From Squalus acanthias (taxonomy: Eukaryota), in the NCBI GenBank assembly GCA_030390025.1, contig JASTWF010000033.1, positions 1,428,001 to 1,492,000 on the forward strand: a DNA stretch of 64,000 nucleotides, given 5' to 3'. The notes below the pieces were generated by a model. The model did no database searches and was not told the DNA's origin. It saw only the letters and a list, made by a program, of their open reading frames with translations. The stretch's first letter is position 1. The number at the start of each line of letters is the position of its first letter. Position numbers and translations under genes: made by a program. Shown one piece after another: positions 1-46,015 of the stretch.

Positions 1-3000
1 TCAATCTCTCATCATAGGACAGCCCTCACATCCCAGGTATCAATCCAGTGAGTACAGGCCCAGCCTACTCAATCTCTCATTCATAGGACAGCCCGCTCAT
101 CCCAGGTATCAATCCAGTGAGTACAGGCCCAGCCTACTCAATCTCTCATCATAGGACAGCCCTCTCATCCCAGGTATCAATCCAGTGAGTACAGGCCCAG
201 CCTACTCAATCTCTCATCATAGGACAGCCCTCTCATCCCAGGTATCAATCCAGTGAGTACAGGCCCAGCCTACTCAATCTCTCATCATAGGACAGCCCTC
301 TCATCCCAGGTATCAATCCAGTGAGTACAGGCCCAGCCTACTCAATCTCTCATCATAGGACAGCCCGCTCATCCCAGGTATCAATCCAGTGAGTAGAGGC
401 CCAGCCTACTCAATCTCTCATCATAGGACAGCCCTCTCATCCCAGGTATCAATCCAGAGAGTACAGGCCCAGCCTACTCAATCTCTCATCATAGGACAAG
501 CCCTCTCATCCCAGGTATCAATCCAGTGAGTACAGGCCCAGCCTACTCAATCTCTCATCATAGGACAGCCCGCTCATCCCAGGTATCAATCCAGTGAGTA
601 CAGGCCCAGCCTACTCAATCTCTCATCATAGGACAGCCCTCTCATCCCAGGTATCAATCCAGTGAGTACAGGCCCAGCCTACTCAATCTCTCATCATAGG
701 ACAGCCCGCTCATCCCAGGTATCAATCCAGTGAGTACAGGCCCAGCCTACTCAATCTCTCATCATAGGACAGCCCGCTCATCCCAGGTATCAATCCAGTG
801 AGTACAGGCCCAGCCTACTCAATCTCTCATCATAGGACAGCCCGCTCATCCCAGGTATCAATCCAGTGAGTACAGGCCCAGCCTACTCAATCTCTCATCA
901 TAGGACAGCCCTCTCATCCCAGGTATCAATCCAGTGAGTACAGGCCCAGCCTACTCAATCTCTCATCATAGGACAGCCCTCTCATCCCAGGTATCAATCC
1001 AGTGAGTACAGGCCCAGCCTACTCAATCACTCATCATAGGACAGCCCTCTCATCCCAGGTATCAATCCAGTGAGTACAGGCCCAGCCTACTCAATCTCTC
1101 ATCATAGGACAGCCCTCTCATCCCAGGTATCAATCCAGTGAGTACAGGCCCAGCCTACTCAATCTCTCATCATAGGACAGCCCTCTCATCCCAGGTATCA
1201 ATCCAGTGAGTACAGGCCCAGCCTACTCAATCTCTCATCAAAGGACAGCCCTCTCATCCCAGGTATCAATCCAGTGAGTACAGGCCCAGCCTACTCAATC
1301 TCTCATCATAGGACAGCCCTCTCATCCCAGGTATCAATCCAGTGAGTACAGGCCCAGCCTACTCAATCTCTCATCATAGGACAGCCCGCTCATCCCAGGT
1401 ATCAATCCAGTGAGTAGAGGCCCAGCCTACTCAATCTCTCATCATAGACAGCTCCTCTCATCCCAGGTATCAATCCAGTGAGTACAGGCCCAGCCTACTC
1501 AATCTCTCATCATAGACAGCCCTCTCATCCCAGGTATCAATCCAGTGAGTACAGGCCCAGCCACTCAATCTCTCATCATAGGACAGCCCTCTCATCCCAG
1601 GTATCAATCCAGTGAGTACAGGCCCAGCCTACTCAATCTCTCATCATAGGACAGCCGCTCATCCCAGGTATCAATCCAGTGAGTACAGGCCCAGCCTACT
1701 CAATCTCTCATCATAGGACAGCCCTCTCATCCCAGGTATCAATCCAGTGAGTACAGGCCCAGCCTACTCAATCTCTCATCATAGGACAGCCCTCTCATCC
1801 CAGGTATCAATCCAGTGAGTACAGGCCCAGCCTACTCAATCTCTCATCATAGGACAGCCCTCTCATCCCAGGTATCAATCCAGAGAGTACAGGCCCAGCC
1901 TACTCAATCTCTCATCATAGGACAGCCCTCTCATCCCAGGTATCAATCCAGAGAGTACAGGGCCCAGCCTACTCAATCTCTCATCATAGGACAGCCCTCT
2001 CATCCCAGGTATCAATCCAGTGAGTACAGGCCCAGCCTACTCAATCTCTCATCATAGGACAGCCCGCTCATCCCAGGTATCAATCCAGTGAGTACAGGCC
2101 CAGCCTACTCAATCTCTCATCATAGGACAGCCCGCTCATCCCAGGTATCAATCCAGTGAGTACAGGCCAGCCTACTCAATCTCTCATCATAGGACAGCCC
2201 TCTCATCCAGGTATCATCCAGTGAGTACAGAGCCCAGCCTACTCCAATCTCTCATCATAGACAGCCCTCTCATCCCAGGGTATCAATCCAGTGAGTACAG
2301 GCCCAGCCTACTCAATCTCTCATCATAGGACAGCCGCTCATCCCAGGTTATCAATCCATGTGAGTAGCAGGCCCAGCCTACTCAATCTCACATTCATAGG
2401 ACAGCCCTCTCATCCAGGTATCAATCCAGTGAGTACAGGCCCCAGCCTATCAATCTCTCATCATAGGACAGGCCCGCTCATCCCAGGTATCAATCCAGTG
2501 AGTACAGGCCCAGCCTACTCAATCTCTCATCATAGGACAGCCCTCTCATCCAGGTATCAATCCAGTGAGTACAGGCCCAGCCTACTCAATCTCTCATCAT
2601 AGGACAGCCCTCTCATCCCAGGTATCAATCCAGTGAGTACAGGCCCAGCCTACTCAATCTCTCATCATAGACAGCCCTCTCATCCCAGGTATCAATCCAG
2701 TGAGTACAGGCCCAGCCTACTCAATCTCTCATCATAGGACAGCCCTCTCATCCCAGGTATCAATCCAGTGAGTACAGGCCCAGCCTACTCAATCTCTCAT
2801 CATAGGACAGCCCGCTCATCCAGGTATCAATCCAGTGAGTACAGGCCCAGCCTACTCAATCTCTCATCATAGGACAGCCTCTCATCCCAGGTATCAATCC
2901 AGAGAGTACAGGCCCAGCCTACTCAATCTCTCATCATAGGACAGCCCGCTCATCCCAGGTATCAATCCAGTGAGTAGAGGCCCAGCCTACTCAATCTCTC

Positions 3001-6000
3001 ATCATAGGACAGCCCTCTCATCCCAGGTATCAATCCAGAGAGTACAGGCCCAGCCTACTCAATCTCTCATCATAGGACAGCCCTCATCCCAGGTATCAAT
3101 CCAGTGAGTAACAGGCCCAGCCTACTCAATCTCTCATCATAGGACAGCCCGCTCATCCCAGGATCAATCCAGTGAGTACAGGCCCAGCCTACTCAATCTC
3201 TCTCATAGGACAGCCCGCTCATCCCAGGTATCAATCCAGAGAGTACAGGCCCAGCCTACTCATCTCTCATCATAGGACAGCCCGCTCATCCCAGGTATCA
3301 ATCAGTGAGTACAGGCCCAGCCTACTCAATCTCTCATACATAGGACAGCCCGCTCATCCCAGGTATCAATCGCAGTGAGTCAGGCCCAGCCTACTCAATC
3401 TCTCATCAATAGGACAGCCCTCTCATCCCAGGTATCAATCCAGTGAGTACAGGCCCCAGCCTACTCAATCTCTCATCATAGGACAGCCCTCTCATCCCAG
3501 GTATCAATCCAGAGAGTACAGGCCCCAGCCTACTCATCTCTCATCATAGGACAGCCCTCTCATCCCAGGTATCAATCCAGGAGGAGTACAGGCCCAGCCT
3601 ACTCAATCTCTCATCATAGGACAGCCCTCTCATCCCAGGTATCAATCCAGAGAGTACAGGCCCAGCCTACTCAATCTCTCATCATAGGACAGCCCTCTCA
3701 TCCCAGGTATCAATCCAGAGAGTACAGGCCCAGCCTACTCAATCTCTCATCATAGGACAGCCCTCTCATCCCAGGTATCAATCCAGAGAGTACAGGCCCA
3801 GCCTACTCAATTCTCTCATCATAGGCCAGCCCTCTCATCCAGTATCAATCCAGTGAGTACAGGCCCAGCCTACTCAATCTCTCATCATAGGACAGCCCTC
3901 TCACCCAGGTATCAATCCAGTGAGTAGAGGCCCAGCCTACATCAATCTCTCATCATAAGGACAGCCCTCTCATCCCAGGTATCAATCCAGTGAGTACAGG
4001 CCCAGCCATACTCAATCTCTCATCATAGGACAGCCCGCTCATCCCAGGTATCAATCCAGTGAGTACAGGCCCAGCCTACTCAATCTCTCATCATAGGACA
4101 GCCCTCTCATCCCAGGTATCAATCCTGTGAGTACAGGCCCAGCCTACTCAATCTCTCATCATAGGACAGCCCGCTCATCCCAGGTATCAATCCAGTGGAG
4201 TACAGGCCCAGCCTACTCAATCTCTCATCATAGGACAGCCCTCTCATCCCAGGTATCAATCCAGTGAGTAGCAGGCCCAGCCTACTCAATCTCTCATCAT
4301 AGGACCGCCCTCTCATCCCAGGTATCAATCCAGTGAGTACAGGCCCAGCCTACTCAATCTCTCATCATAGGACAGCCCTCTCATCCCAGGTATCAATCCA
4401 GAGAGTACAGGCCCAGCCTACTCAATCTCTCATCATAGGACAGCCACTCATCCCAGGTATCAATCCAGAGAGTACAGGCCCAGCCTACTCAATCTCTCAT
4501 CATAGGACAGGCCCGCTCATCCAGGTATCAATCCAGTGAGTACAGGCCCAGCCTACTCAATCTCTCTCATAGGACAGCCCTCTCATCCCAGGTATCAATC
4601 CAGTGAGTACAGGCCAGCCTACTCAATCTCTCATCATAGGACAGCCCTCTCATCCCAGGTATCAATCCAGTGAGTACAGGCCCAGCCTACTCAATCTCTC
4701 ATCATAGGGACAGCCCTCTCATCCCAGGTATCAATCCAGTGAGTACAGGCCCAGCCTACTCAATCTCTCATCATAGGACAGCCCTCTCATCCCAGGTATC
4801 AATCCAGAGAGTACAGGCCCAGCCTACTCAATCTCTCATCATAGGACAGCCCTCTCATCCCAGGTATCAATCCAGAGAGTACAGGCCCAGCCTACTCAAT
4901 CTCTCATCATAGGACAGCCCTCTCATCCAGGTATCAATCCAGTGAGTAGAGGCCCAGCCTACTCAATCTCTCATCATAGGACAGCCTCTCATCCCAGGTA
5001 TCAATCCGAGTGAGTAGAGGCCCAGCCTACTCAATCTCTCATCATAGGACAGCCCTCTCATCCCAGGTATCAATCCAGTGAGTACAGGCCCAGCCTACTC
5101 AATCTCTCATCATAGGACAGCCCGCTCATCCCAGGTATCAATCCAGTGAGTACAGGCCCAGCCTACTCAATCTCTCATCATAGGACAGCCCGCTCATCCC
5201 AGGTATCAATCCAGTGAGTACAGGCCCAGCCTACTCAATCTCTCATCATAGGACAGCCCGCTCATCCCAGGTATCAATCCAGTGAGTACAGGCCCAGCCT
5301 ACTCAATCTCTCATCATAGGACAGCCCTCTCATCCCAGGTATCAATCCAGAGAGTACAGGCCCAGCCTACTCAATCTCTCATCATAGGACAGCCCTCTCA
5401 TCCCAGGTATCAATCCAGTGAGTACAGGCCCAGCCTACTCAATCTCTATCATAGGACAGCCCTCTCATCCCAGGTATCAATCCAGTGAGTACAGGCCCAG
5501 CCTACTCAATCTCTCATCATAGGACAGCCCTCTCATCCCAGGTATCAATCCAGTGAGTACAGGCCCAGCCTACTCAATCTCTCATCATAGGACAGCCCTC
5601 TCATCCCAGGTATCAATCCAGTGAGTACAGGCCCAGCCTACTCAATCTCTCATCATAGGACAGCCCTCTCATCCCAGGTATCAATCCAGTGAGTACAGGC
5701 CCAGCCTACTCAATCTCTCATCATAGGACAGCCCTCTCATCCCAGGTATCAATCCAGTGAGTACAGGCCCAGCCTACTCAATCTCTCATCATAGGACAGC
5801 CCGCTCATCCCAGGTATCAATCCAGAGAGTACAGGCCCAGCCTACTCAATCTCTCATCATAGGACAGCCCTCTCATCCCAGGTATCAATCCAGAGAGTAC
5901 AGGCCCAGCCTACTCAATCTCTCATCATAGGACAGCCCGCTCATCCCAGGTATCAATCCAGTGAGTACAGGCCCAGCCTACTCAATCTCTCATCATAGGA

Positions 6001-9000
6001 CAGCCCGCTCATCCCAGGTATCAATCCAGTGAGTACAGGCCCAGCCTACTCAATCTCTCATCATAGGACAGCCCGCTCATCCCAGGTATCAATCCAGAGA
6101 GTAGAGGCCCAGCCTACTCAATCTCTCATCATAGGACAGCCCGCTCATCCCAGGTATCAATCCAGTGAGTACAGGCCCAGCCTACTCAATCTCTCATCAT
6201 AGGACAGCCCGCTCATCCCAGGTATCAATCCAGTGAGTACAGGCCCAGCCTACTCAATCTCTCATCATAGGACAGCCCGCTCATCCCAGGTATCAATCCA
6301 GTGAGTACAGGCCCAGCCTACTCAATCTCTCATCATAGGACAGCCCGCTCATCCCAGGTATCAATCCAGTGAGTACAGGCCCAGCCTACTCAATCTCTCA
6401 TCATAGGACAGCCCTCTCATCCCAGGTATCAATCCAGAGAGTACAGGCCCAGCCTACTCAATCTCTCATCATAGGACAGCCCTCTCATCCCAGGTATCAA
6501 TCCAGAGAGTACAGGCCCAGCCTACTCAATCTCTCATCATAGGACAGCCCCTCTCATCCCAGGTATCAATCCAGTGAGTACAGGCCCCAGCCTACTCAAT
6601 CTCTCATCATAGGACAGCCCTCTCATCCCAGGTATCAATCCAGTGAGTACAGGCCCAGCCTACTCAATCTCTCATCATAGGACAGCCCTCTCATCCCAGG
6701 TATCAATCCAGAGAGTACAGGCCCAGCCTACTCAATCTCTCATCATAGGACAGCCCTCTCATCCCAGGTATCAATCCAGTGAGTACAGGCCCAGCCTACT
6801 CAATCTCTCATCATAGGACAGCCCTCTCATCCAGGTATCAATCCAGTGAGTACAGGCCCAGCCTACTCAATCTCTCATCATAGGACAGCCCTCTCATCCC
6901 AGGTATCAATCCAGTGAGTACAGGCCCAGCCTACTCAATCTCTCATCATAGGACAGCCCTCTCATCCCAGGTATCAATCCAGTGAGTACAGGCCCAGCCT
7001 ACTCAATCTCTCATCAAGGACAGCCCTCTCATCCCAGGTATCAATCCAGTGAGTACAGGCCCAGCCTACTCAATCTCTCATCATAGGACAGCCCTCTCAT
7101 CCCAGGTATCAATCCAGTGAGTACAGGCCCAGCCTACTCAATCTCTCATCATAGGACAGCCCTCTCATCCCAGGTATCTCAATCCAGTGAGTACAGGCCC
7201 AGCCTACTCAATCTCTCATCATAGGACAGCCCGCTCATCCCAGGTATCAATCCAGTGAGTACAGGCCCAGCCTACTCAATCTCTCATCATAGGACAGCCC
7301 TCTCATCCCAGGTATCAATCAGTGAGTAGAGGCCCAGCCTACTCAATCTCTCATCATAGGACAGCCCTCTCATCCCAGGTATCAATCAGAGAGTACCAGG
7401 CCCAGCCTACTCAATCTCTCATCATAGGACAGCCCTCTCATCCCAGGTATCAATCCAGAGAGTACAGGCCCAGCCTACTCAATCTCATCATAGGACAGCC
7501 CTCTCATCCCAGGTATCAATCCAGTGAGTACAGGCCCAGCCTACTCAATCTCTCATCATAGGACAGCCCGCTCATCCCAGGTATCAATCCAGTGATTACA
7601 GGCCCAGCCTACTCAATCTCTCATCATAGGACAGCCCTCTCATCCCAGGTATCAATCCAGTGAGTACAGGCCCAGCCTACTCAATCTCTCATCATAGGAC
7701 AGCCCTCTCATCCCAGGTATCAATCCAGTGAGTACAGGCCCAGCCTACTCAATCTCTCATCATAGGACAGCCCTCTCATCCCAGGTATCAATCCAGAGAG
7801 TACAGGCCCAGCCTACTCAATCTCTCATCATAGGACAGCCCTCTCATCCCAGGTATCAATCCAGAGAGTACAGGCCCAGCCTACTCAATCTCTCATCATA
7901 GGACAGCCCTCTCATCCCAGGTATCAATCCAGAGAGTAGAGGCCCAGCCTACTCAATCTCTCATCATAGGACAGCCCTCTCATCCCAGGTATCAATCCAG
8001 AGAGTAGAGGCCCAGCCTACTCAATCTCTCATCATAGGACAGCCCTCTCATCCCAGGTATCAATCCAGTGAGTACAGGCCCAGCCTACTCAATCTCTCAT
8101 CATAGGACAGCCCGCTCATCCCAGGTATCAATCCAGTGAGTACAGGCCCAGCCTACTCAATCTCTCATCATAGGACAGCCCGCTCATCCCAGGTATCAAT
8201 CCAGTGAGTACAGGCCCAGCCTACTCAATCTCTCATCATAGGACAGCCCGCTCATCCCAGGTATCAATCCAGTGAGTACAGGCCCAGCCTACTCAATCTC
8301 TCATCATAGGACAGCCCTCTCATCCCAGGTATCAATCCAGAGAGTACAGGCCCAGCCTACTCAATCTCTTATCATAGGACAGCCCTCTCATCCCAGGTAT
8401 CAATCCAGTGAGTACAGGCCCAGCCTACTCAATCTCTTATCATAGGACAGCCCTCTCATCCCAGGTATCAATCCAGTGAGTACAGGCCCAACCTACTCAA
8501 TCTCTCATCATAGGACAGCCCTCTCATCCCAGGTATCAATCCAGAGAGTACAGGCCCAGCCTACTCAATCTCTCATCATAGGACAGCCCTCTCATCCCAG
8601 GTATCAATCCAGAGAGTACAGGCCCAGCCTACTCAATCTCTCATCATAGGACAGCCCTCTCATCCCAGTATCAATCCAGTGAGTACAGGCCCAGCCTACT
8701 CAATCTCTCATCATAGGACAGCCCGCTCATCCCAGGTATCAATCCAGTGAGTACAGGCCCAGCCTACTCAATCTCTCATCATAGGACAGCCCGCTCATCC
8801 CAGGGTATCAATCCAGAGAGTACAGGCCCAGCCTACTCAATCTCTCATCATAGGACAGCCCGCTCATCCCAGGTATCAATCCAGAGAGTACAGGCCCAGC
8901 CTACTCAATCTCTCATCATAGGACAGCCCGCTCATCCCAGGTATCAATCCAGTGAGTAGAGGCCCAGCCTACTCAATCTCTCATCATAGGACAGCCCGCT

Positions 9001-12000
9001 CATCCCAGGTATCAATCCAGAGAGTACAGGCCCAGCCTACTCAATCTCTCATCATAGGACAGCCCGCTCATCCCAGGTATCAATCCAGAGAGTAGAGGCC
9101 CAGCCTACTCAATCTCTCATCATAGGACAGCCCGCTCATCCCAGGTATCAATCCAGTGAGTACAGGCCCAGCCTACTCAATCTCTCATCATAGGACAGCC
9201 CGCTCATCCCAGGTATCAATCCAGAGAGTACAGGCCCAGCCTACTCAATCTCTCATCATAGGACAGCCCGCTCATCCCAGGTATCAATCCAGTGAGTAGA
9301 GGCCCAGCCTACTCAATCTCTCATCATAGGACAGCCCGCTCATCCCAGGTATCAATCCCGTGAGTACAGGCCCAGCCTACTCAATCTCTCATCATAGGAC
9401 AGCCCTCTCATCCCAGGTATCAATCCAGTGAGTACAGGCCCAGCCTACTCAATCTCTCATCATAGGACAGCCCTCTCATCCCAGGTATCAATCCAGAGAG
9501 TACAGGCCCAGCCTACTCAATCTCTCATCATAGGACAGCCCTCTCATCCCAGGTATCAATCCAGTGAGTACAGGCCCAGCCTACTCAATCTCTCATCATA
9601 GGACAGCCCTCTCATCCCAGGTATCAATCCGTGAGTACAGGCCCAGCCTACTCAATCTCTCATCATAGGACAGCCCTCTCATCCCAGGTATCAATCCAGA
9701 GAGTACAGGCCCAGCCTACTCAATCTCTCATCATAGGACAGCCCTCTCATCCCAGGTATCAATCCAGTGAGTACAGGCCCAGCCTACTCAATCTCTCATC
9801 ATAGGACAGCCCTCTCATCCCAGGTATCAATCCAGTGAGTACAGGGCCCAGCCTACTCAATCTCTCATCATAGGACAGCCCGCTCATCCCAGGTATCAAT
9901 CCAGTGAGTAGAGGCCCAGCCTACTCAATCTCTCATCATAGGACAGCCCTCTCATCCCAGGTATCAATCCAGAGAGTACAGGCCCAGCCTACTCAATCTC
10001 TCATCATAGGACAGCCCCGCTCATCCCAGGTATCAATCCAGTGAGTACAGGCCCAGCCTACTCAATCTCTCATCATAGGACAGCCCGCTCATCCCAGGTA
10101 TCAATCCAGAGAGTAGAGGCCCAGCCTACTCAATCTCTCATCATAGTACAGCCCTCTCATCCCAGGTATCAATCCAGTGAGTACAGGCCCAGCCTACTCA
10201 ATCTCTCATCATAGGACAGCCCGCTCATCCCAGGTATCAATCCAGTGAGTAGAGGCCCAGCCTACTCAATCTCTCATCATAGGACAGCCCGCTCATCCCA
10301 GGTATCAATCCAGTGAGTAGAGGCCCAGCCTACTCAATCTCTCATCATAGGACAGCCCGCTCATCCCAGGTATCAATCCAGAGAGTACAGGCGCAGCCTA
10401 CTCAATCTCTCATCATAGGACAGCCCGCTCATCCCAGGTATCAATCCAGTGAGTAGAGGCCCAGCCTACTCAATCTCTCATCATAGGACAGCCCGCTCAT
10501 CCCAGGTATCAATCCAGTGAGTAGAGGCCCAGCCTACTCAATCTCTCATCATAGGACAGCCCTCTCATCCCAGGTATCAATCCAGAGAGTAGAGGCCCAG
10601 CCTACTCAATCTCTCATCATAGGACAGCCCTCTCATCCCAGGTATCAATCCAGTGAGTACAGGCCCAGCCTACTCAATCTCTCATCATAGGACAGCCCGC
10701 TCATCCCAGGTATCAATCCAGTGAGTACAGGCCCAGCCTACTCAATCTCTCATCATAGGACAGCCCTCTCATCCCAGGTATCAATCCAGAGAGTAGAGGC
10801 CCAGCCTACTCAATCTCTCATCATAGGACAGCCCTCTCATCCCAGGTATCAATCCAGTGAGTACAGGCCCAGCCTACTCAATCTCTCATCATAGGACAGC
10901 CCGCTCATCCCAGGTATCAATCCAGTGAGTACAGGCCCAGCCTACTCAATCTCTCATCATAGGACAGCCCTCTCATCCCAGGTATCAATCCAGAGAGTAC
11001 AGGCCCAGCCTACTCAATCTCTCATCATAGGACAGCCCGCTCATCCCAGGTATCAATCCAGTGAGTACAGGCCCAGCCTACTCAATCTCTCATCATAGGA
11101 CAGCCCGCTCATCCCAGGTATCAATCCAGAGAGTAGAGGCCCAGCCTACTCAATCTCTCATCATAGGACAGCCCTCTCATCCCAGGTATCAATCCAGTGA
11201 GTACAGGCCCAACCTACTCAATCTCTCATCATAGGACAGCCCGCTCATCCCAGGTATCAATCCAGTGAGTAGAGGCCCAGCCTACTCAATCTCTCATCAT
11301 AGGACAGCCCGCTCATCCCAGGTATCAATCCAGTGAGTAGAGGCCCAGCCTACTCAATCTCTCATCATAGGACAGCCCGCTCATCCCAGGTATCAATCCA
11401 GAGAGTACAGGCGCAGCCTACTCAATCTCTCATCATAGGACAGCCCGCTCATCCCAGGTATCAATCCAGTGAGTAGAGGCCCAGCCTACTCAATCTCTCA
11501 TCATAGGACAGCCCGCTCATCCCAGGTATCAATCCAGTGAGTAGAGGCCCAGCCTACTCAATCTCTCATCATAGGACAGCCCTCTCATCCCAGGTATCAA
11601 TCCAGAGAGTAGAGGCCCAGCCTACTCAATCTCTCATCATAGGACAGCCCTCTCATCCCAGGTATCAATCCAGTGAGTACAGGCCCAGCCTACTCAATCT
11701 CTCATCATAGGACAGCCCGCTCATCCCAGGTATCAATCCAGTGAGTACAGGCCCAGCCTACTCAATCTCTCATCATAGGACAGCCCTCTCATCCCAGGTA
11801 TCAATCCAGAGAGTAGAGGCCCAGCCTACTCAATCTCTCATCATAGGACAGCCCTCTCATCCCAGGTATCAATCCAGTGAGTACAGGCCCAGCCTACTCA
11901 ATCTCTCATCATAGGACAGCCCGCTCATCCCAGGTATCAATCCAGTGAGTACAGGCCCAGCCTACTCAATCTCTCATCATAGGACAGCCCTCTCATCCCA

Positions 12001-13172
12001 GGTATCAATCCAGAGAGTAGAGGCCCAGCCTACTCAATCTCTCATCATAGGACAGCCCTCTCATCCCAGGTATCAATCCAGTGAGTACAGGCCCAGCCTA
12101 CTCAATCTCTCATCATAGGACAGCCCGCTCATCCCAGGTATCAATCCAGTGAGTAGAGGCCCAGCCTACTCAATCTCTCATCATAGGACAGCCCTCTCAT
12201 CCCAGGTATCAATCCAGTGAGTACAGGCCCAGCCTACTCAATCTCTCATCATAGGACAGCCCTCTCATCCCAGGTATCAATCCAGTGAGTACAGGCCCAG
12301 CCTACTCAATCTCTCATCATAGGACAGCCCTCTCATCCCAGGTATCAATCCAGAGAGTAGAGGCCCAGCCTACTCAATCTCTCATCATAGGACAGCCCTC
12401 TCATCCCAGGTATCAATCCAGAGAGTACAGGCCCAGCCTACTCAATCTCTCATCATAGGACAGCCCTCTCATCCCAGGTATCAATCCAGTGAGTACAGGC
12501 CCAGCCTACTCAATCTCTTATCATAGGACAGCCCTCTCATCCCAGGTATCAATCCAGAGAGTAGAGGCCCAGCCTACTCAATCTCTCATCATAGGACAGC
12601 CCTCTCATCCCAGGTATCAATCCAGAGAGTACAGGCCCAGCCTACTCAATCTCTCATCATAGGACAGCCCTCTCATCCCAGGTATCAATCCAGAGAGTAG
12701 AGGCCCAGCCTACTCAATCTCTCATCATAGGACAGCCCTCTCATCCCAGGTATCAATCCAGAGAGTACAGGCCCAGCCTACTCAATCTCTCATCATAGGA
12801 CAGCCCTCTCATCCCAGGTATCAATCCAGAGAGTAGAGGCCCAGCCTACTCAATCTCTCATCATAGGACAGCCCTCTCATCCCAGGTATCAATCCAGAGA
12901 GTAGAGGCCCAGCCTACTCAATCTCTCATCATAGGACAGCCCTCTCATCCCAGGTATCAATCCAGAGAGTACAGGCCCAGCCTACTCAATCTCTCATCAT
13001 AGGACAGCCCTCTCATCCCAGGTATCAATCCAGAGAGTAGAGGCCCAGCCTACTCAATCTCTCATCATAGGACAGCCCTCTCATCCCAGGTATCAATCCA
13101 GTGAGTACAGGCGCAGCCTACTCAATCTCTTATCATAGGACAGCCCTCTCATCCCAGGTATCAATCCAGTGA
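1..13172. repeat. 68-bp tandem satellite (~190+ copies) derived from the CR1 ORF2 3' region
   Basis: Monomer GAGTACAGGCCCAGCCTACTCAATCTCTCATCATAGGACAGCCCTCTCATCCCAGGTATCAATCCAGT, period 68 (e.g. starts at 1681 and 1749). The minus strand translates to TGLIPGMRGLSYDERLSRLGLYS, matching the CR1 C-terminal motif seen elsewhere in the window. Confidence 0.97.
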
Positions 13173-14340
13173 ACCTTCGTTGCACAACCTCTAAGGCAAG
13201 CATGTCCTTCCTCAGATAAGGAGACCAAAACTGTGCACAGTACTCCAGGTGTGGTGTCACTAAAGCCTTTTATTATTCAGGTAGCTCGTCACTACTCTTG
13301 GACTCCAACCCCGCTGCAATAAAGGCCAACATGCCATTTTCCTTCCAAAATGCTTGCTGTACCTGCATGCTAGCGTTCTGTGTTTCCTGTACGAGGACAC
13401 CTAAATCTCTCTAAACACCAATATGTAATAGTTGGTCACCAGTTAAAAAAAATCTGTTTTTCTATTGTTCCTACCAAAGTGAAAAACCTCACGTTTCCCT
13501 ACATTATACTCCATCTGCCATCTTATTTCCCACTCACTTAGTCTATCTATATCCCTTTGCAGATTCCTTGTGTCCTCCTCACAGCTTACTGTCCCACTTA
13601 GATTTGTATCATCAGCAAACTTGGATAGATTGCACTCGGTCCCTTCATCTATGTCATTAATATAGATTGGAAATAGCTGAGTCCCCAGATCTGATCCTTG
13701 CGGCACCCCACCAGTTACAGCCTACCAACCTGAAAAAGATCAGTTAATCCAGACTCTCTGCTTTCTGTTCATTAACCAATCCTCCATCCATGCTAATATT
13801 TTGTCCCCAACCCCATGAGCACTTATCTTGTGTAATAACCTTATATGTGGCACCTTATCAAATGCCGTTTGGAAATCCAGATATGCTGCATCCACTGGTT
13901 CCCCCATATCTACCCTGTTAGGTTCATCCTCAGAAAACTCTAATACATTTGTTGAACACGATTTCCCTTTCATACAAACATGTTCACTCTGCCTAATCAT
14001 GTTATGATTTACTAAGTGCTCTGTTACCATTTCCTTAACAATGGATTCCAGCACTTTCCCGACGACTGATGTCAGGCTAACTGACCGGCAGTTCACTGTT
14101 TTCTCTCTCGCCTTTCTTGAATAGCGGTGTTACATTTGCGACCTTCCAATCCATTGGGACCGTTCCTGAACTTAGGTAATTTTGGAAGATCAAAACCCAT
14201 TCAGATACCTCTTTTAGAACCCTAGGATATAGGACATCAGGTCCAGGGGATTTGTCGGCTTTTAGTTCCATTAGTTTCTCAATTACTTTTGCTCTGCTGA
14301 TATTAGTCACTTTAAGTTTCACACACTTATTAAACCCTTG
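13173..14340 (-). mobile_element. CR1-clade LINE, 5'-truncated ORF2 (RT) remnant and parent of the 68-bp satellite
   Basis: Broken ORFs carry KSPGPD, YLDFQTAFDKVPH, PQGS-LG-LF-IYIND and KFADDT. The sequence runs without a junction into the satellite at ...CAACGAAGGTTC|ACTGGATTGATACC (minus strand). Confidence 0.93.
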
Positions 14341-14342
14341 GT

Positions 14343-14660
14343 TCTGTCTATCTGTCCCTGGCTCTGTCTACCTGCCTGTCCCTTTGTCCGTTTGCGTCTG
14401 TCTGTATCTGTCTCTCGCTGGCTTTCGCTGTCTGTCTGTATATTTGTCTGTTCCTGTATGTCTGTATGTCTGCCTGTGTCTCTGCCTGCCTTTCTGATTG
14501 TCTCGGTCTGCCTGTCTATATGTCTCAGCCTGATTTTATCTGTCTGTCTGTCTGTGTCTCTGTCAGTCTTTCTTAGTCTGTGTCACTGTCTTACTGTCTC
14601 TGTCTGCCGGTCTACCTTGTTTGTCTGTCTGTCTGTCCGTCTCTGTCTGTCTGCCCGTAT
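14343..14660. repeat. Degenerate (TCTG)n-type microsatellite / low-complexity tract
   Basis: Run of TCTG/TGTC units between two head-to-head CR1 copies. Confidence 0.9.
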
Positions 14661-14669
14661 CTTTCTGGC

Positions 14670-17600
14670 GGTCTGCACAGAGCGGGATTAAACGGAGTGG
14701 ACTTGAACAGAGTGCGTTGTTTGGGAATTTGGAAAGAGTGGGAATTTGGAAAGAGAGGGAAGGAGTTGTTGCTTTTTGCCTAAAATACTTGTAGTGTGTG
14801 TGTTACAGGTAGATGGCTAATTGCAGAACACATAACTTAATCTAGATCAAGTAAGTATTCAGGAAACTAAACTATAAACTAAGTTACCTAAATACAAATT
14901 TAATTCAATTTAATTAAATAAATCAAGGTCATATAGGGATGGCAGTGCAGGCGGTGTACCGCAACTGCAGCTTGTGGGAGTTTGTGGAGAGCATTGTGAT
15001 CACGGACAACCACGTTTGCAGTAAGTGCCTGCATCTTGAGGAACTTCAACTCAGAGTTTTTGAGCTGGAGTCTGAGGTGCAGACATTGCGGGGCATCAGG
15101 GATGGGGAGAGTTACCTGGACAATTGGATCCGGGAGGCAGTCACACCCCTTAGGTTAGGTAGTGGTACAGGTCTGGTTAGTGGTCAGGACCAGGGAGGTG
15201 TGACTGCAACTCAGCCAGGTAAGGGGACCACAGGTGCAGTGCTGGAGGAGCCTCAGTCTTTCTACTGTCCAATAGGTATGAGGTTGTTGCTGCCTGTGTG
15301 GATGAGGGAACAGCCTGCAGGATGGGTGAGCAAGCTGACCATGGCACCATGGTGCAGGAGGCCATTCAAGTCGGGGAGTGAAAGGGAATGTAGTTGTGGT
15401 AGGGGTCAGTAAAGTGTGGGTGATAGATACAGTTCTCTGCAGCCGCGACCAAGAGTTCCTAAGTTGTGTTGCCTGTGCGCTATCAGGGTTAAAGACGTCT
15501 CCTCGCGACTGGAGGAGAACTTTTAGTGGGAGGGGAAGGATCCCGTTGTCGTGGTCCAGTTAGGAATCAATGACATAGGTAGAACTAGGAATGAGGTTCT
15601 GCTGAGGGAGTTTGAGGAGCTAGGACCAATTTAAAAATCAGAACCTCAAAGGTAATGATCTCTGGAATTTTACCTGAGCTGTGCGCAAATTGACATAGGG
15701 ACACACAGATCACAGGTTAAAATACGTGGCTCAAAGTGTGGTGTGGGAGGAAGGGGTTTCAGTTCATGGGGCACTGGCACCAGTACTGGGGAAAGGAGGA
15801 GCTGTTCTGTTGGCGAACCAAATAACTGGGGCAGTAGACAGGGCTTTAAACTAATGAAGGGGGCGGGAAGATTCAGGAAAGAGTAAATTTAAAATCAGCG
15901 AGAGAAATGTCAAGGCTCTCGTGCAGAGCAGAGTTTTGGGTAAACTAAGCAGAATGGGTCAGGAAGGGACAGAGAGAGTAACAAACGTAATAAGGCATCA
16001 GAGACTAAGGTGGCATCAGGGAAACATAGAAATAAGTCAAAGCTAAAGGCACTATATCTGAATGAGTGAAGCATTTGCAACAAAATAGATGAATTAATAG
16101 CGCATATAGACATTAAAAGGTTTGACCTAATAGCCATAACGGAGACGTGGTTGAAAAGTGGCCACAGTTGGGAACGAAATATTCCAGGATACATAACTGT
16201 TAGAAGTGATAGGCAAAATGGAAAAGGAGGAGGGCAAGCCCTGATAATAAAGGATGGGATAAAAACAGGAGAGACAAAGGATCTTAGCTACAAAATCAAG
16301 AAGTAGAATCAGTTTCGGTGGAGCTGAGAAAACGCAAGTGGCAGAACATGTTGGTGGGAGTTGTTTATAGGCTCCCAAAAAGTAATTATTATGTAGGGCA
16401 GAGTATTAATCAAGAAATTAGAGATGCATGTAACAAGGATAATATAGTAATCATGGGGGACATTAATCTACATATAGACTGGGCAAACCAAATTTACAGT
16501 AATAGTGTGGAGGACGAATTTATGCAATGTATGCCAGATATATTTCTAGATCAGTATGCTGAGGAACCAACTAGGGAACAGGCTATTTTGGATCTAGTAT
16601 TGTGCAATCAGAAAAGATTAATTAATAACTTTGTAGTAAAGGGTCCTTTAGGGAAGAGTGGCCATGATATGATAGAATTTTAGATTAAGTTTGAAAGTGA
16701 CTTGGCAAACTACGTAGGTATGAGGGACGAGTAGGCTAACGTAGATTGGAAAACTACATTAAAAGGTATGTCAGTGGACGAGCAATGGCCAGCATTTAAA
16801 TAATTAATACAACATTTACAACGAATATACATTCCTTTAAGGCACACAAACCCCACAGGAAAAGTGGTCCAACCCTGGCTAACAAGAGAAGTTAAATATA
16901 GTATTAGATCAAAGAAAGAGGCTTATAATGCTGCCAAAAATGTAGTGATACTGAGGATTGGGAGGATTTTAGAATTCAGCAAAGGAGGACCAAGAAATTG
17001 ATAAAGAAAGGGAAAATAGAATATGATGGTAAACTAGCAGAAGACATAAAACAAACTGTTAAAGCTTCCATAGGTATGTAAAAAGGAAAAGATTAGCAAA
17101 AGCAAATGTGGCTCAATTACAGGCTGAGACAGCAGAAATTATAATGGGAAATCAGGAAATGGCAAAAGAAATTGAACAAATTATTTCTGTCTGTCTTCAT
17201 GGAATAAGATAAAAGACTTCCTGGAAATAATGGACAATCAAGGGCTAGCAAGAATGAGGAACTGAAATATATTAATATTAGTAAAAAGGTAGTACTGGAG
17301 ATCTTAATGGGACTGAGAGCCGATAAATCCCCTGGACCAGATGGCCTGCATCCGAGGGTTTTCAAAGATTTGGCTATAGCGACAGTAGATGAATTGGTTA
17401 TCAGTTTCCAAAATTGCAGATTGTAGAATGATTCCCGAGGATTGGAAGTTAGTAAATGTAACCACATTATTTAAGAAAGGAGGGAGAGAGAAAACAGGGA
17501 AATGCAAATCAGTTAGCCTGACATCAGTAGCAGGGAAAATGCTAGAATCTGTTATTAGGAAAGTGGGAACAGGGCACTTAGCAAATAATAATAGGATCAG

Positions 17601-18106
17601 GCAGAGTCATAACTGATTTATGAAAGGGAAATCGTGTTTAACAAACTTTTAGACTTTTTTGAGATTGTAATAGATATGGGGAACCAGTGGATGTGGTGTA
17701 TTTGGATTTTCAGAATGCATTCGATAAAGTGCCACAGAAGAGTTTTTAAACAAAATTAGGGCTTATGGGATTCGGGGTAATATAGTAGCATGGATTGAGG
17801 ATTGGTTAACGGAGAGAAAACAGAGAGTAGGAATAAATGGGTCATTTTCGGTTTGGCACTAGTGTGGTAATGCGAGGATCAGTGCTTGGGCCTCAGCTAT
17901 TCACAATCTCCATCAATGATTTGGATGAGGGGACCAAATTTAATATATCCAAGTTTCCTGATGATACAAAGCTCGGTGGGAATGTAAGTTGTGAGAAGGA
18001 TGCAGGGAGGCTTCAAGGGAATATAGATAGGTTAAATGAATCGGCAAGAACATGGCAAATAGAGAATAATGTGGAGAAATGTGAAGTTATCCACTTTGGT
18101 AGGAAA
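14670..18106 (+). mobile_element. CR1 LINE with 5' UTR, ORF1 (Zn-finger/leucine zipper + SGNH esterase) and disrupted ORF2 (APE endonuclease + RT); 3' end missing
   Basis: ORF1 at 14939 (NCSLWEF...HVCSKCLHLEELQLRVFELE), then an esterase-like segment. EN motifs ITETW, GVVYR and PTREQAILDLVL; RT motifs [16 protein letters not shown] and KFPDDTK. Many stops and frameshifts. Confidence 0.9.
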
Positions 18107-18700
18107 TATAGAAACATACAAAATAGGAGCAGGAGTAGGCCATTCGGCCCTTCGATTCTGCTCCGTCATTCAATATAATCATGGCTGATCCTCTATCTCA
18201 ATATCACATTCCCGCTCTTTCCCCATACCCCTTGATGCCTTTTGTGTCTCGAAATCTATCTATCTCCTTCTTAAATATATTCAGTGACTTGGCCTCACAG
18301 CCTTCTGTGGGAGAGAATTCTAAAGGTTCACCACCCTCTGAGTGAAGAGATTTCTCCTCATCTCAGTCCTAAATGTCCTACCCCGTATCCTGAGAATGTG
18401 ACAACTCGTCCGAGAGCCCCCAGCCAGGTGAAACATCCTCTCTTCATTCAGTCTGTCTAGCCCTGTCAGAATTTTATACGTTTCACTGAGATCCGCTCTG
18501 ATTCTTCTAAACTCGAGAGAATGCAGGCCTAGTCGACCCAATCTCTCCTCAAACGACAGTCCTGCCATTTCAGGAATCAGTCGAGTGAACCTTAGCTGCA
18601 CTCCCTCGATGGCAAGTATATCCTTTCTGAGGTAAGGAGACCAAAACAGCACACAGTACTCCAGGTGTGGTCTCACCAAGGCCCTGTATAACTGTAGTAA
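18107..18700 (-). mobile_element. CR1 LINE 3' fragment with (TAGAAACA)-type tail
   Basis: ORF 18320-18679 reads RPHLEYCVLFWSPYLRKD...RFTRLIPEMAGLSFEERLGRLGLHSLEFRR. The 3' UTR and tail resemble those at 39548. Confidence 0.92.
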
Positions 18701-20340
18701 GCCAAATATAGAGGAAAAAACAAGTCAGCCTCGAAGGCAGAGCAAATATGTAACGGCACAAGGGAGTATGGCAAGGCTGGATGGCATTTATTTTAATGCA
18801 AGGAGTCTTGCGAGTAAGGCAGATGAATTGAAGGTGTTGATGAACACATGGGAGTATGATATTGTTGCTATCACAGAGACATGGCTGAGGGAGGGGCAGG
18901 ACTGGCAGCTCAATATTCAGGTGTATAGAATCTTCAGGCGAGACAGACGGGGTGTAAAAGAGGAGGGGGTTTCGCAATATTAATCAAGGAGTAAATTACT
19001 GCTGTCAGGAGGGATGATATCTTAGCAGGTTCCTCTAATGAGGCCATATGGGTAGAACTTAAAAACGAAAAGGGTGCAAGCACTTTGCTGGGAGTGTACT
19101 ATAGGCCCCCAAACAGTCACCGGGAGATAGAGGAACAGATATGTAGGCAAATCTCAGAGAAGTGTAGAAATAATAGGCTAATAATATTGGGAGATTGCAA
19201 CTTCCCCAATATTAACTGGGATAGTCAGAGTGTGAAAGGCTGAGAGGGTGCAAAATTCTTAAAGTGCATCCAGGAGAGCTTTTTGAGCCAGCATGTAGAA
19301 AGTCCTACAAGAGAGCGGGCGGTACTGGACCTAATTCTAGGGAACGTAGCCGGGCTAGTGGTAGAAGTGTCAGTAGGAGAGCATTTTGGTGAGAGTGACC
19401 ATAATTCGGTGAGATTTAAGGTAGTCATGAAAAGGACAAAGATGGCCCGGAAATAAAGGTTCCAAATTGAGGGAAGGCAGATTTTAATATGATAAGGCAG
19501 GATCTGGCCAACGTGTACTGGGATCAGCTCCTTGTAGGAAAATCCACATCAGAGCAGTGGGAGTCTTTCAGAAAGGAAATAGAGAGAGTACAATGCCAAC
19601 ATGTTCCCATAAAGGGCAAGGGTGGGACCTACAATCTCAGGGAGCCCTGGATGCAAGGGATATACAAGGATGGATTAGGAAAAAAAGTAAAGCTTTTGGC
19701 AGGTACAAAGGACTAAAAACAGTGGAAGCCCTAGAGGAGTATAGAAAATGCAGTGGGGTACATAAAAAAAGAAATTATGAGAGCAAAGAGGGGGCATGAA
19801 AAAACATTGGCGGGCAAAATAAAGGAAAATCCCAAGGTGTTTTATATATATATTAAGGGCAAGAGGTAATCAGGGAAAGAGTGGGGCCCATAAGGGACCA
19901 AAGTGTGTGGAGCCAGAAGATGTAGGTGAGGTTTTAAATGAATATTTTGCATCTGTGTTCACTATGGAGAAGGACGATGCAGGCATAGAAATCAGGCAGG
20001 GGTTTGGGATATACTTGACCAAATTAGTATTGAGAGGGAGGAGGTACTAGCGGTTTTAGCGTGGTAAAAAGTCGTTAAATCCCCAGGCCCAGACGAGATG
20101 TATCCCAGGTTGCTGTCTGAGGCAAGGAAGGAGATTGCAGGGGCTCTGACACAAATTTTCAGAACAGCTCTGGCCAAAGGGGAGGTGGCAGAAGACTAGA
20201 GAACAGCTAACGTAGTACAATTATTCAAGTAGTGTATTAGGGATAAACCAGGGAATTACAGGCCAGTGATCCTTACATCAGTGGTAGGGAAATTATTGGA
20301 AAAAATTCTGAAGGACAGAATTAGTCTCAACTTGGAGAAA
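18701..20340 (+). mobile_element. CR1 LINE ORF2 fragment (endonuclease to start of RT), different subfamily
   Basis: YFNARSL, YDIVAITETWL, GVYYRPP, SDHN, KSPGPDEMYPR and NYRPV motifs, with stops. Confidence 0.88.
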
Positions 20341-24410: not shown

Positions 24411-24599
24411 CCCAACCTGGTTACCAGAGTATCACTTCCCTTATCACCTAACTACAGTCCTTCCTCATATGTAGCCTTGTCCGACAAGCTCCTTTCGCAC
24501 AACGGCAGGATCTGCTTCAGACTTTAATTGGAACTGTGACTTTTTGTCTTGGTAACAATAACAAATTGTAACATCGCAAACTGATATAGTTTATCACAC

Positions 24600-25115
24600 C
24601 AACACAGCACCGCAAACTGATACAGAATCTAAAAGCAATATAGTACCTAAAACTAATACAGCACTTCAAACTAATACAGCCCCTCAAACTAATACAGCCC
24701 CTCAAACTAATACAGCCCCTCACACCAATACAGCCCCTCAAACTAATACAGCCCCTCAACCTAATACAGCCCCTCAAACTAATATAGCCCCTCACACCAA
24801 TACAGCCCATCAAACTAATACAGCATCTCAAACTAATACAGCCCCTCAAACTAATACAGCCCCTCAAACTAATACAGCCCCTCAAACTAATACAGCACCT
24901 CAAACTAATACCGCCCCTCAATCTAATACAGCACCTCAAACTAATACAGCACCTCAACCTAATACCGCCCCTCAACCTAATACAGCACCTCAAACTAATA
25001 CAGCCCCTCAAACTAATACAGCATCTCAAGCTAATACAGCCACTTAAACTAATACAGCCCCTCAAACTAATACAGCCGCTTAAACTAATACAGCCCCTCA
25101 AACTGATATAGAATC
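24600..25115. repeat. 18-bp minisatellite (CTCAAACTAATACAGCCC)n, ~26 copies
   Basis: Clear 18-bp period with degenerate edges; it explains the CISLRG ORF at 24517-25182. Confidence 0.95.
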
Positions 25116-25149
25116 TGAAACATGGTAAACGCTGAACCAGTTTCCCCTT

Positions 25150-35333: not shown

Positions 35334-36033
35334 ATGCCCTTTGAGAATGCTGTCCTGGTCCTCTGTGCGATTTTGTATCAGAGAATTTTGGACGCCAGGC
35401 GACAAGATAGACGGAGCAACCAAAACCGTCTCCTCCTGAGAAGGAGAAACTACTACCCAGCCCAGAGAGTGTACAGGGAGATTGAATGTCATGATACTCT
35501 GTGATGCACATCTCAGGATCCTAAATGTGAATGCAAGTAACCGGGGAAGTAATCATGACTCCTTCGTCCTCCGTAACTCAAACTTATTTGGCGCCCTCAA
35601 CGCATTGCCTCCAGGATCAGCATGGATATCAGGCGACAAGGGCTACCCGCTAAGACCATGGCTGATGACTCCCTACCGCAAGACCAATAATAAGGCTCAG
35701 GAGAGATACAAACTGGCACACGTGTCCACACGGCAAGTGGTGGAGAGGACAATCGGAGTTCTGAAATCACGCTTCCGCTGCCTGGACAGGTCAGGGGGGA
35801 CCTTGCAGTATTCTCCTCAGAAAGTGGAAAGGATTGTGGTGGCCTGTTGTGCTTTGCATAACTTTGCCCTGCGGGAAGGACTGACCCTTAACGCTGCAGA
35901 GGAACTAATGCTGAAATGGAGGACGTGGACAATGCCAATGTGCCTGTGGGAAGGCCTGATGGGGACGAGCCAAGTGCTGCTGAAAGTAAGGCTGCTCGGG
36001 AGCAGCTGGTAGCCAACACCTTCACGAGGTAGT
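35334..36033 (+). pseudogene. Harbinger (HARBI1-like) DDE transposase, internally deleted and frameshifted
   Basis: N-terminus MPFENAVL...RRRNYYPAQRVYRE is joined out of frame to LNVMILCDA...GSNHDSF...GDKGYPLRPWLMTPY...VERTIGVLKSRFRCLD...ACCALHNFA. The terminal AREQLVANTF lies in another frame. Confidence 0.9.
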
Positions 36034-39075: not shown

Positions 39076-42000
39076 TGCAGCCACACAGAAAATTAGTTCT
39101 CAGGTGACTGATGAGCCCAGTGCGGGACCTACAGTCTCTGTCACAGGTGGGGCAGACGTTGTTTGAAGGGGCGGGTGGGTGGGGTGCTTGGGTTGACGTG
39201 CGCTCCTTCCGCCGTTTGCGCTTCACTTTCGCTTGCTCCCGGCGAAGAGACTCGAGATGTTCGGTGCTTTCCCGGATGCTTCTCCTCGACTTTGTGCAGT
39301 CTTGGGCCAGGGATCCCCATGTGTCGGTGGGGATATTGCACTTTTTCAAGGAGGCGTTAAAGCGTTTCCTCAGCCCACCAATGCTCTCTTGACGGGTCGG
39401 AGGTCCGAGTACTGCGCTTGTTTTGGGAGTCTCGTATCGGGCATGAGGATATTGTGGCCCGTCCATCGGAGCTGATCGAGCGTGGTCAAAGCTTCGATGC
39501 TGGGAATGTTGGCCTGAGCGAGAACACTGACGTTGGTGCGCCTATCCTAGAAACATAGAAACATAGAAGATAGGAGCAGGAGTAGGACATTCGGCCCGTC
39601 GAGCCTGCTCCACCATTCAATGCGACCATGGCTGTATATTCAAATTCAGTACCCTGTCCCTGCTTTCTTCCCGTATCGCTTGATCACCTTAGCCTTAAGA
39701 AATATATCTAACTCCTTCTTGAATATATTTAATGAATTGGACTCAACTGTCTTCTGTGGTAGAGAATTCCACAGGTTCACCACTCTCTGGATGAAGAAAT
39801 TCCTCCTCATCTCAGTCCTAAATGGCTTACCCCTTATCCTTAGACTGTGACTCTTGGATCTGGACTCCCCCACCATCGGGAACATCCTTCCTGCATCTAG
39901 TCTGTCTAGTCCTGTTAGAATTTTATAAGTTTCAATGAGATCCCCTCTCATTCTTCTAAACTCTAGCGAACACAAGCCCAATCGACCCAATCTCTCTTTA
40001 ATCGTCATTCCTGCCATCCCAGGTGTCAGTCTGGTGAATCAATGCTGCACTCTCTCCATGGCAAGAACATCCTTCCTCAGATAAGGCGACCAAAACTGCA
40101 CACAATTCTCAAAGTGTGCTCTTACCAAGGCCCTGTACAACTGCAGCAAGACATCCTTGTTCCTGTACTCGAATCCTTTCGCTATGAAGGTCAACATATC
40201 ATTTGCCTTCTTAACCGCCTGCTGCACCTGCATGCTTACCTTCAGCGACTGGTGCACAAGGACACCCAGATCTCGTTGCACTTACCCTTTTCCCACTCTA
40301 TTGCCGTTAAGATAATAATCTGCCTTCCTGTTTTTGCCACCAAAGTGGATAACCTCGCATTTATCCTCATTATACTGCATCTGCCATGCATCTGCCCTAT
40401 CACCCAACCTGTCCAAATCATCCTGGAGTATATCTGCATCCTTCTCACAGCAGACACGCGCACCCAGCTTTGTGTCGTCTGCAAACTTCGAGATATTACA
40501 TCTAGTTCCCTCGTCTATATTATTAATATATAGCGTGAATAACTCGGGTCCTAACACTGATCCCTGCGGTACCCCACTAGTCAATGCCACTCGGAAATAG
40601 ACCCCTTTATTCCAACTCTTTTCTTCCGGTCTGCCAACCAGTTTTCTATCCAAGACAGTACCTTACCGCCAATCCCGTGAGCTTTAACTTTGCACGCTAT
40701 CTCTTATGCGGGACCTTATCGAAAGCCTTCTGAAAGTCCAAATACACCACATCCACTGGTTCTCCCTTATCTATTCTACCAGTTACATCCTCAAAAAATT
40801 CCAGTAGATTAGTCAAGCATGATTTTGTAAATGCATTTTGACTTTGTGCGATCCTGTCACTGTTTTCCAAGTGCTCTGCTATTACATCTTTTATAATGGA
40901 CTCTAGCATTTTCCCCACTGCCGATGTCAGGCTTACAGGTCTATAATTCCCTATTTTCTCTCTACCACCATTTTTAAATAGTGGGATTACTTTAGCTACC
41001 CTCCAATCCATGGGAACTGTTCCAGAGTCTATAGAATTTTGGAAGATGACCAGCAATGCATCTACTATTTCTAGGGCCACTTCCTTAAGTACACTAGGAT
41101 GTAGATTATCAGGCCCTGGGGATTTATCGATCTTCAGTCCGGTCAATTTCCCTGACACCATTACCCTACAAAAACTGATTTCATTCAGTTCCTCCCTCTC
41201 ATTAGACCCTATGTTCCCCGATATCAATGGGAGGTTACTTGTGTCCTCATTTTTGAAGACAGAATCAAAGTATGTATTTAATTGTTCTCCCATTACTTTG
41301 TTCCCCACTATAAATTCTCCTGATTCTGACCGCAAGGGACGTACGCTTGACTTCACCAATCTTTTTCCCTTCAGATATGTATAAACGCTTTTATAATCAG
41401 TTTATTTGTTCCCTGGAAGCTTCCTCTCATACTCTATTTCCCCCCTCTTAATTAAGCCCTTTATCGTCCTTTGCTGAATCCTAAACTGTTCCAATGCTCA
41501 GGTTTGTTGCTTTTCTGGCCTATTTTATGTCCTCTCTCTGGATCTTATGGTATCCCTAATCTCCCTTGTTAGCTACGGTTTAGTCACCTTATTTTTAATT
41601 TTTATGCCAAACAGGAATGAACAAATTCTGTAGTTCATCCATGCAATCTTTAAATGATTGCCATTGCCTATCCACCGTCAACCATTTAAGTAACGTTCGA
41701 TAAACCATCCTAGCTAACTCGCGCCTCATACCATCGTAGTTTCCTTTATTTAAATTCAGGGCCCTAGACTCTGAGTCAACTGCTTCACTCTTCATCTTAA
41801 ACAAGAATTCTATCATATGATGATCGCTCCTCCCCAAATGGCCTCGCACAGCATGATTGCTAATTAATCCTTTCTCATTATATAATACCCAGTCTAAGAT
41901 GACCTGGTCTCTAGTTGGCTTCTCGACATATTGGTCCAGGAAACCATCCCGTATACACTCTAGGAATTCCTCCTCCACAGTATTGTTACTAATTTGGTTA

Positions 42001-45000: not shown

Positions 45001-46015
45001 GAGGCTGAGGCTGAATAGGGCTTTCTTAGCGGGATATTTGAATGCTCCAGTATTGATTTTCCTGCGGCATTGCTTCTGTTGCCGCGCTGTTTTGGGGCTA
45101 CGTTGATGGAGATGGCAGAGCGGATTAAGCGGTGATCTGTCCAGCAGCCGTCAGCTCCTGTCATGGCGCAGATGATGCGGACATCCTTGCGGTCCCTCGC
45201 TCGGACGATGACGTAGCCCAGCAGATATCAGTGCTTAGAGCGAGGGTGTTGCCATGAAGCCTTGTACTTGTCTCTCTGACGGAACAATGTGTTGGTTATG
45301 ACAAGGCAAAGTTCTAAACATTTCGACAGGAGGAGGGTACCGATGGAGTTGGCTTTCCCTACCCCCTCTCTGCCGATCACACCACCCAGAGTTCTGTGTC
45401 CTTTCAACTCTGTCGTTAAAATCGCCAAGGAGGATCAGCTTGTCGCCCGTTGGGACTCGGGACAGGGATTGTACGAGGCTGCAGTATAATTCCTCTTTGG
45501 TCTCGTCTGTAGCTTCCAGTGTTGGGCGTATAAACTGATGACTTTAGCACACTGGTTCCGGGTTAGGTTGAGCCGAAGAGTCACGAGGGGAGTCTCTGAG
45601 ACGTCCAAGTAGTTATTTTTTTAAGTCGAAGACTACCCCATGGAGGCGGCGTTCTACTTCAGGTTTGCCTTTCCAGAAGAGGGTGTAACCACCACCTTGC
45701 TCCTTGAGCTGGCCTTCCCCTGCCTGCCAGGTCTCGCTTTGGGCAACGATGTCTATGTCAAAACGTCTGCGCTCCCGGGCAACGATAGCAGTACGGCGTT
45801 CCGGTCTGTCACTGTTGAGCTTGTACATGAGGGTCCTGATGTTCCAGATCCTAAACTTAATTTTAAAGGGTGGAAGGTGCCTGTGCGCGAATTCTTTTAA
45901 CGTGGGGTGGCCGTTGCATATCAGCTACCACAAGGGCTTGACAGACCAAAGTCTTGGTCCAATGCCAAGGGGATCCAGACGATTGGAGACCAGGCTCTGC
46001 TACATCGGCCTAGCA
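39076..46015 (-). mobile_element. RTE-clade LINE, near full length, split by a CR1; RTE parts are 46015-43161 and 39547-39076
   Basis: EN WNIRTL...ERRTAIVARE...DIDIVAQSET; RT ESQCGFRPLRGTMDMIF, GVNQGCVIAPTLFSI, LHYAED and LLYASETWT; C-terminal CPTCDRDCRSRTGLISHLRT. Confidence 0.9.
39548..43160 (-). mobile_element. CR1 LINE (esterase, EN, RT, 3' UTR, (TAGAAACA)n tail) inserted in the RTE
   Basis: Long ORFs 41595-42428 (EN), 40697-41359 and 40282-40653 (RT); tail TAGAAACATAGAAACATAGAA at 39548. Confidence 0.94.

Follow-up and report, generated by a model that had tools for sequence, protein, structure and literature searches.

The left part of the analysed window (the whole stretch of 64,000 nucleotides) is occupied by a tandem array with a 68-bp unit (positions 1–13173, plus strand; TRF period 68, 193.8 copies), comprising 193 whole units and a part unit. 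The window starts inside this array, the left end of which lies outside it. Translation reveals that the unit corresponds in antisense to CR1 ORF2, spanning the codons of F-T-G to those of Y-S-L, and that the last unit reads in frame into a decayed, 5'-truncated CR1-like ORF2 fragment on the minus strand (13174–14340), identified by blastn and by its in-frame translation with stops. This fragment, hereafter the host copy, represents the reverse transcriptase part of the element (RVT_1, E = 3e-07 at 13446–13721), and its own 3' end is outside the window. The array unit originates in the CR1 ORF2 of a decayed CR1-like copy.

Another CR1-like copy, present as its unexpanded 3' end (602 bp; 18103–18704, minus strand; blastn and alignment), contains, as the earlier note had pointed out, two near-identical 9-mers, TCGAGAGAA (18513–18521, corresponding to sense-strand codons of H-S-L-E) and TCGAGTGAA (18581–18589, sense-strand codons of F-T-R), which lie 68 bp apart and agree in eight of nine letters. 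The correspondence of these 9-mers with the satellite monomer junction was confirmed, in that they align on the junction of the array unit and the segment is 72–77% identical to the unit. In the comparison of the unit with single-copy CR1 segments, identity was 72–78% for the 18513 copy and 71% for the copy at 39976. Aligned with the array end and its flank, the 18513 copy is 77–78% alike and has G in both motifs where the array has C; it is therefore a relative of the array and not its parent.

A longer CR1-like copy (39548–42446, minus strand) contains an endonuclease (Exo_endo_phos) and a reverse transcriptase (RVT_1) domain and has as its tail the octamer TAGAAACA, present twice at 39548–39563. 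In this copy the two sites (39962–39970 and 40030–40038) match at 7/9, again with a spacing of 68, and are unexpanded. The two-site match among the copies in the window is 8/9 at 18513, 7/9 at 39962 and 6/9 near 29600, the last by hand count. We take all these copies to be CR1 elements on account of their domains, the octamer tail and characteristic motifs. CR1 elements are described in PMC4316615 as having an ORF2 with endonuclease and reverse transcriptase and, at the end of the 3' UTR, an octamer repeat. At 18103–18114, the 3' tail of the minus-strand copy abuts the truncated end of a plus-strand CR1 copy (15357–18114).

Two more tandem arrays are present in the window. One has an 18-bp unit and about 26 copies (24577–25121), and both its ends are in the window, with decayed edge units. 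The other is a GC-rich 19-bp array with more than 940 copies (46136–64000), the plus strand of which is almost free of A; it begins just past the 5' part of a LINE (42765–45924, RVT_1), presumably RTE-like from its motifs. A Harbinger-like DDE_Tnp_4 nuclease fragment is located at 35440–36012 (E = 6e-32).

Variation within the 68-bp array

The array units differ from each other by 2.0% in the mean of all pairs (unit table). Three unit positions are commonly variable among the 193 units, namely 42 (T/G, 124/67), 65 (T/A, 134/58) and 3 (C/G, 157/36), with gaps or single letters making up the remaining counts; among the 46 units free of indels (10046–13173), the corresponding counts are 28/18, 26/20 and 24/22. 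The A/T variant at the junction, regarded in the earlier note as the main polymorphism of the satellite, is only one of these three. At 190 anchored junctions, the word TCCAGTGAG was found 121 times and TCCAGAGAG 57 times, with 12 junctions showing other words. Nor do the two junction types alternate along the array, as had been stated: 70 switches were counted against 81 ± 6 expected in random order, i.e. the types are slightly clustered if anything. The changes at positions 3, 42 and 65 are all transversions, and each affects the third position of a codon in the former ORF2 frame (by eye); this shared pattern is probably due to chance (about 1 in 27).

The letters at position 65 combine in all four ways with those at the following position 3, only 6 bp away (114, 19, 41 and 17), which shows fine-scale exchange within the array. 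The array edge takes part in exchange as well, because the two substitutions of the terminal unit (13106–13173, plus strand), at unit positions 8 and 26, recur, each separately, in interior units: the former is found at 10386, 11406 and 13106, the latter at 8345, 8413, 12494 and 13106. The chance that both would recur inside the array is at most 0.003. Junctions with A become more frequent toward the right edge: A is carried by 10 of the final 12 inner junctions, compared with 47 of the 167 others and 3 of the first 40 (the units are not independent, which inflates the significance). This excess weakly fits A as the first junction type. Position 62 is uniform in this respect: T, which is the family letter in the unexpanded relatives discussed below, is absent from the variant lists of the 193 units, and C is found in all 46 indel-free units.

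Two further features of the array were observed. An exact repeat of 807 bp (10193–10999 and 11213–12019) has its two copies 15 units (1020 bp) apart and is accompanied by a weaker three-unit rhythm; it represents either a recent block duplication or an early higher-order structure of the array. In addition, indels crowd at 1415–5490, with 24, 27 and 12 per 20 units versus 0–3 beyond 8200, and this pile-up most likely consists of read errors in the assembly.

Family letters of the unexpanded relatives

Contigs from four of 23 public runs were aligned to the region 13085–13270, with 5,859–17,773 contigs per run and a cut-off of 85% likeness, which favours host-like copies. Organism A is represented by two runs from separate studies, organisms B and C by one run each. 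One of the runs, X1, is possibly the window's own sample. It should be noted that contig depth is no measure of copy number, and that contigs drop rare variants and show presence, not absence.

At the left site, the contigs of each of the four runs have loose ends to the left of 13118 that read CTTCTAAAC-TCCAGAGA(G/A)-TATAGG (82, 64, 141 and 106 contigs), with an agreement of 0.72–0.81 that refers to the whole stretch and not to each base. The lack of listed changes at 13102–13113 is uninformative here, considering that a certain change at 13113 is also unlisted. At the right site, the T at 13170 is kept, with no change reaching 5% among those listed for the four runs. The left letter of the relatives is thus A and the right one T, so that the pattern given in the earlier note as refuting its model was not observed.

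At 13167, however, T makes up 94.5, 93.5, 79.2 and 90.3% of the summed depth of the relatives in the four runs, where the earlier note had expected TC(A/T)CTGGA, with C, at both ends of the consensus. The family pair, TCCAGAGA / TCTAGTGA, therefore matches at only 6/8, with an exact core of two bases, and the match rises to 7/8 when the family left site is paired with the host right site. The latter, TCCAGTGA (13165–13172, plus strand), has at 13167 the C that is a minority letter in the family and at 13170 the family letter T, as judged by comparison with the family letters. The exact TCCAG overlap is consequently the host copy's own. The earlier suggestion that the overlap is built into CR1 holds for the soft 6/8 match, which stems from the codons of F-T-R and S-L-E, 68 nt apart, and fails for the exact 5-bp core, which belongs to the host copy.

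The other two common variants of the array have no such counterpart. At unit position 3 the family letter is T where the array has C or G, and since no change is listed at 13147, the G that the array has at unit position 42 does not belong to the family letters at the level of 5% or more. The variants at positions 3 and 42 are ordinary mutations.

More distant relatives were sought in metagenomes, where 315 matches gave 11 loci, all distant (32–63% identity). In the five loci with both sites aligned, the sites agree in 2, 2, 2, 4 and 2 of nine letters, two of the pairs being at other spacings; the soft match is therefore not general. A scan of viral contigs gave 17 pattern matches and no confirmed relative.

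Origin of the array and of its junction letters

As a pair, the 9-mers are unremarkable, because pairs matching at 8/9 with a spacing of 20–200 bp are common by chance: they number 18–27 per kb in five CR1 stretches, near shuffled levels, and 11 in the 602-bp 18513 copy versus 9.0 in shuffles. The coincidence of the overlap with the array junction, in contrast, is not chance. A random duplication junction falls on a 7/8 match in 0.3–0.5% of cases, and on a 6/8 match in 2.7–3.8%. We consider it very probable that the array originated at the overlap. The earlier proposal that an origin between two direct repeats explains the array is supported to this extent by the letters of the relatives, A at the left site and T at the right one, with the reservation that the exact overlap belongs to the host copy.

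The left boundary of the array lies outside the window, and the left motif of the host was for this reason deduced from the family loose ends. With the resulting host pair, TCCAGAGAG / TCCAGTGAA, single crossovers yield exactly the two observed junctions. Single crossovers in the family pair could also yield T at position 62, which is seen in no unit, as would be expected if the parent already had C.

Our preferred reading is that a duplication between short flanking repeats was followed by a second exchange at the edge, which supplied the other junction type; on balance, we regard this sequence of events as somewhat likely. The conserved F-T-R and S-L-E codons, 68 nt apart, would have offered the soft match of 6–7 bases that is seen in the CR1 lineage. 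The replacement of the family T by C at 13167 in the host right site, present in today's terminal unit, would then have produced the exact 5-bp TCCAG inside a 7/8 match with the left site, as the latter is read from the relatives. The first duplication may have taken place between the two sites by slippage, unequal exchange or microhomology-mediated repair, and the array may have grown by exchange over longer homology. A crossover to the left of the mismatch would give the A junction and a crossover to its right the T junction; one type would have come first, and the other would have been brought in by a later edge exchange while the array was short. In the minisatellites of Jurka and Gentles, substitutions are reportedly brought in from partly similar flanks. 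The variants at positions 3 and 42 would be later mutations, and fine-scale exchange would have shuffled all three variants. On the other side, the terminal unit could have received its C at 13167 from the array, and the 18513 copy matches better (8/9) yet did not expand. No function of the 68-bp array is implied.

Two other ideas were considered and rejected. A hairpin-driven slip was dropped, as neither the unit nor the 18513 segment folds unusually as a single strand (z -0.7 to -1.4). The idea that the array variants came by conversion from dispersed CR1 copies was discarded as well, the family letters at positions 27, 54 and 62 being absent among these variants.

If the origin at the overlap is accepted, the derivation of the A/T variant from the two ends appears likely. 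A toy model of array growth was run 2,000 times per setting, success being defined as both junction types at 15% or more. Both types were common in 5–10% of runs when edge crossovers were as easy as inner ones, and in 1–2% when they were five times harder, which is no better than chance mutation. An initial setting that allowed exchange of the whole array on the 8-bp overlap alone gave up to 38%; it was rejected, and the corrected run was used. For a chance mutation, the probability of exactly this change being among the three common variants is about 1.5%, so that, against 1–10% for the model, the likelihood ratio is only about 1 to 7. The survival of both junction types as alleles, proposed in the earlier note, is likely, but tempered by this ratio and by the two equally common variants for which there is no such source.

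These two variants also speak for the strongest alternative, namely that the array was born between the short repeats with one junction type only, and that the A/T variant is a later transversion which matches the other end by chance. The transversions at positions 3 and 42 are equally common and arose without any overlap, and the G at 42 is absent from the family letters at 5% or more; mutation alone would therefore be enough for A/T, and the junction route itself is only 1–2% likely with penalised edges. On the other hand, the odds of exactly this change (about 1.5%) compare poorly with the 5–10% of the unpenalised edge route, and variants are common to the terminal unit and the array interior. 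We consider a chance transversion improbable, albeit with an appreciable chance of being correct.

It is also conceivable that another CR1 copy was the birthplace of the array, which would then have been brought here by ectopic recombination or conversion between CR1 copies, as part of a wider satellite family. The position of the left array end beyond the window would leave room for such a transfer. However, cover across the junction (13085–13091) reaches 837 in one run of organism A and 527 in the other, about 1,200–1,500 times below the unit cover, and is zero in organisms B and C. Moreover, unit and flank are about equally far from the family majority, differing at no fewer than 5 of 68 positions and 6 of 64, respectively (hand count, run X1). 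A transfer is therefore very unlikely. Slightly less probable still is a first duplication in which the CR1 reverse transcriptase jumped back on its template during insertion, at the family 6/8 match, with later homogenization of the unit: the plus strand being the cDNA strand, jumping back once past the right site would yield the T-type junction, which is indeed the majority type in the sequence, but a family-type template predicts the T at position 62 that no unit has, and no 68-base back-joint is present among the joints listed for the four runs, each with its 5,859–17,773 contigs.

Possible recurrence in CR1 and comparison with known systems

The idea that this CR1 segment is a recurrent satellite seed with identical boundaries found no support in the four runs, the junction being covered in one of the three organisms. 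There is a hint, instead, that the segment duplicates repeatedly at other boundaries. In run X7 of organism C, one contig (depth 116) jumps from 13166 to 13123 with 29 intervening letters starting TAAACTCCAGA, which amounts to a 73-base unit; its junction fits a TCTA overlap in the family sequence (by eye), and this TCTA boundary is located 5 bases left of TCCAG. Furthermore, back-joints of 32–38 bases were found at 13215–13262 in runs X1, X3 and X6, some at a depth of 120–530, and possibly represent another CR1-derived repeat.

The birth of repeats between short repeats in transposable elements is already established, and the 68-bp locus is an added, well-preserved example with the host attached. 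Minisatellite birth between flanking repeats of 5–10 bp was proposed by Haber and Louis (1998), and Alu-derived minisatellites were explained by the same model by Jurka and Gentles (2006), both as cited in PMC6947457 and PMC3389668. In PMC3389668, 300 of 7,276 human element-derived repeats had flanking repeats of 5–20 bp, most flanks being of about 7 bp, and hotspot regions for tandem repeats were reported in AluS and LTR12. As in these accounts of the Haber–Louis and Alu cases, a unit internal to a transposable element is flanked here by direct repeats of 5–10 bp, and would have been duplicated by slippage or unequal crossing-over and amplified: the unit matches a single-copy parent segment, and the short repeat, spaced by the period, lies at the segment ends. 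This repeat is directly visible at the right end of the array (13165–13172), the left end being outside the window. Unlike the Alu minisatellites as summarized there, the source is CR1 ORF2, the array extends over at least 13 kb, and the overlap includes one mismatch, both letters of which are common.

Tandem repeats holding CR1 sequence are known from chicken, where they include the HinfI (SCR1) satellite and the CR1-C-derived Cen2, 3, 4, 7 and 11 repeats (PMC9659126, PMC6947457). The resemblance includes part of ORF2; HinfI consists, however, of 3' UTR and part of ORF2, whereas the 68-bp unit is wholly ORF2 and has its host copy attached on one side. No centromere role is implied for the 68-bp array. 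The maize repeats CRM1TR and CRM4TR, which originated independently from similar retrotransposon regions (PMC3648361), are likewise wholly retrotransposon-derived, with short junction homologies and variation spread by conversion. They derive from LTR elements, have much longer units and two demonstrated origins, while independence is hinted at here by one contig. In the literature searched, which included few subscription journals, no paper was found on this satellite or on two junction alleles arising from a mismatched overlap.

A broader possibility, which we put forward as doubtful, is that the last few hundred bases of ORF2 in this CR1 lineage act as a repeated satellite cradle. Conserved codons would keep soft overlaps in every copy, a point mutation would complete one of them, allowing an old copy to expand, and the mismatch would record at least two crossover positions. 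If so, the 73-base contig and the back-joints of 32–38 bases would be further products of the same region. For the 68-bp array itself, an origin of its two junction letters from the two ends would mean that it records two crossover positions within 8 bases, a modest but clear check of the model of repeat birth. The finding would acquire greater weight if mutation-completed overlaps predicted, genome-wide, which CR1 copies expand.
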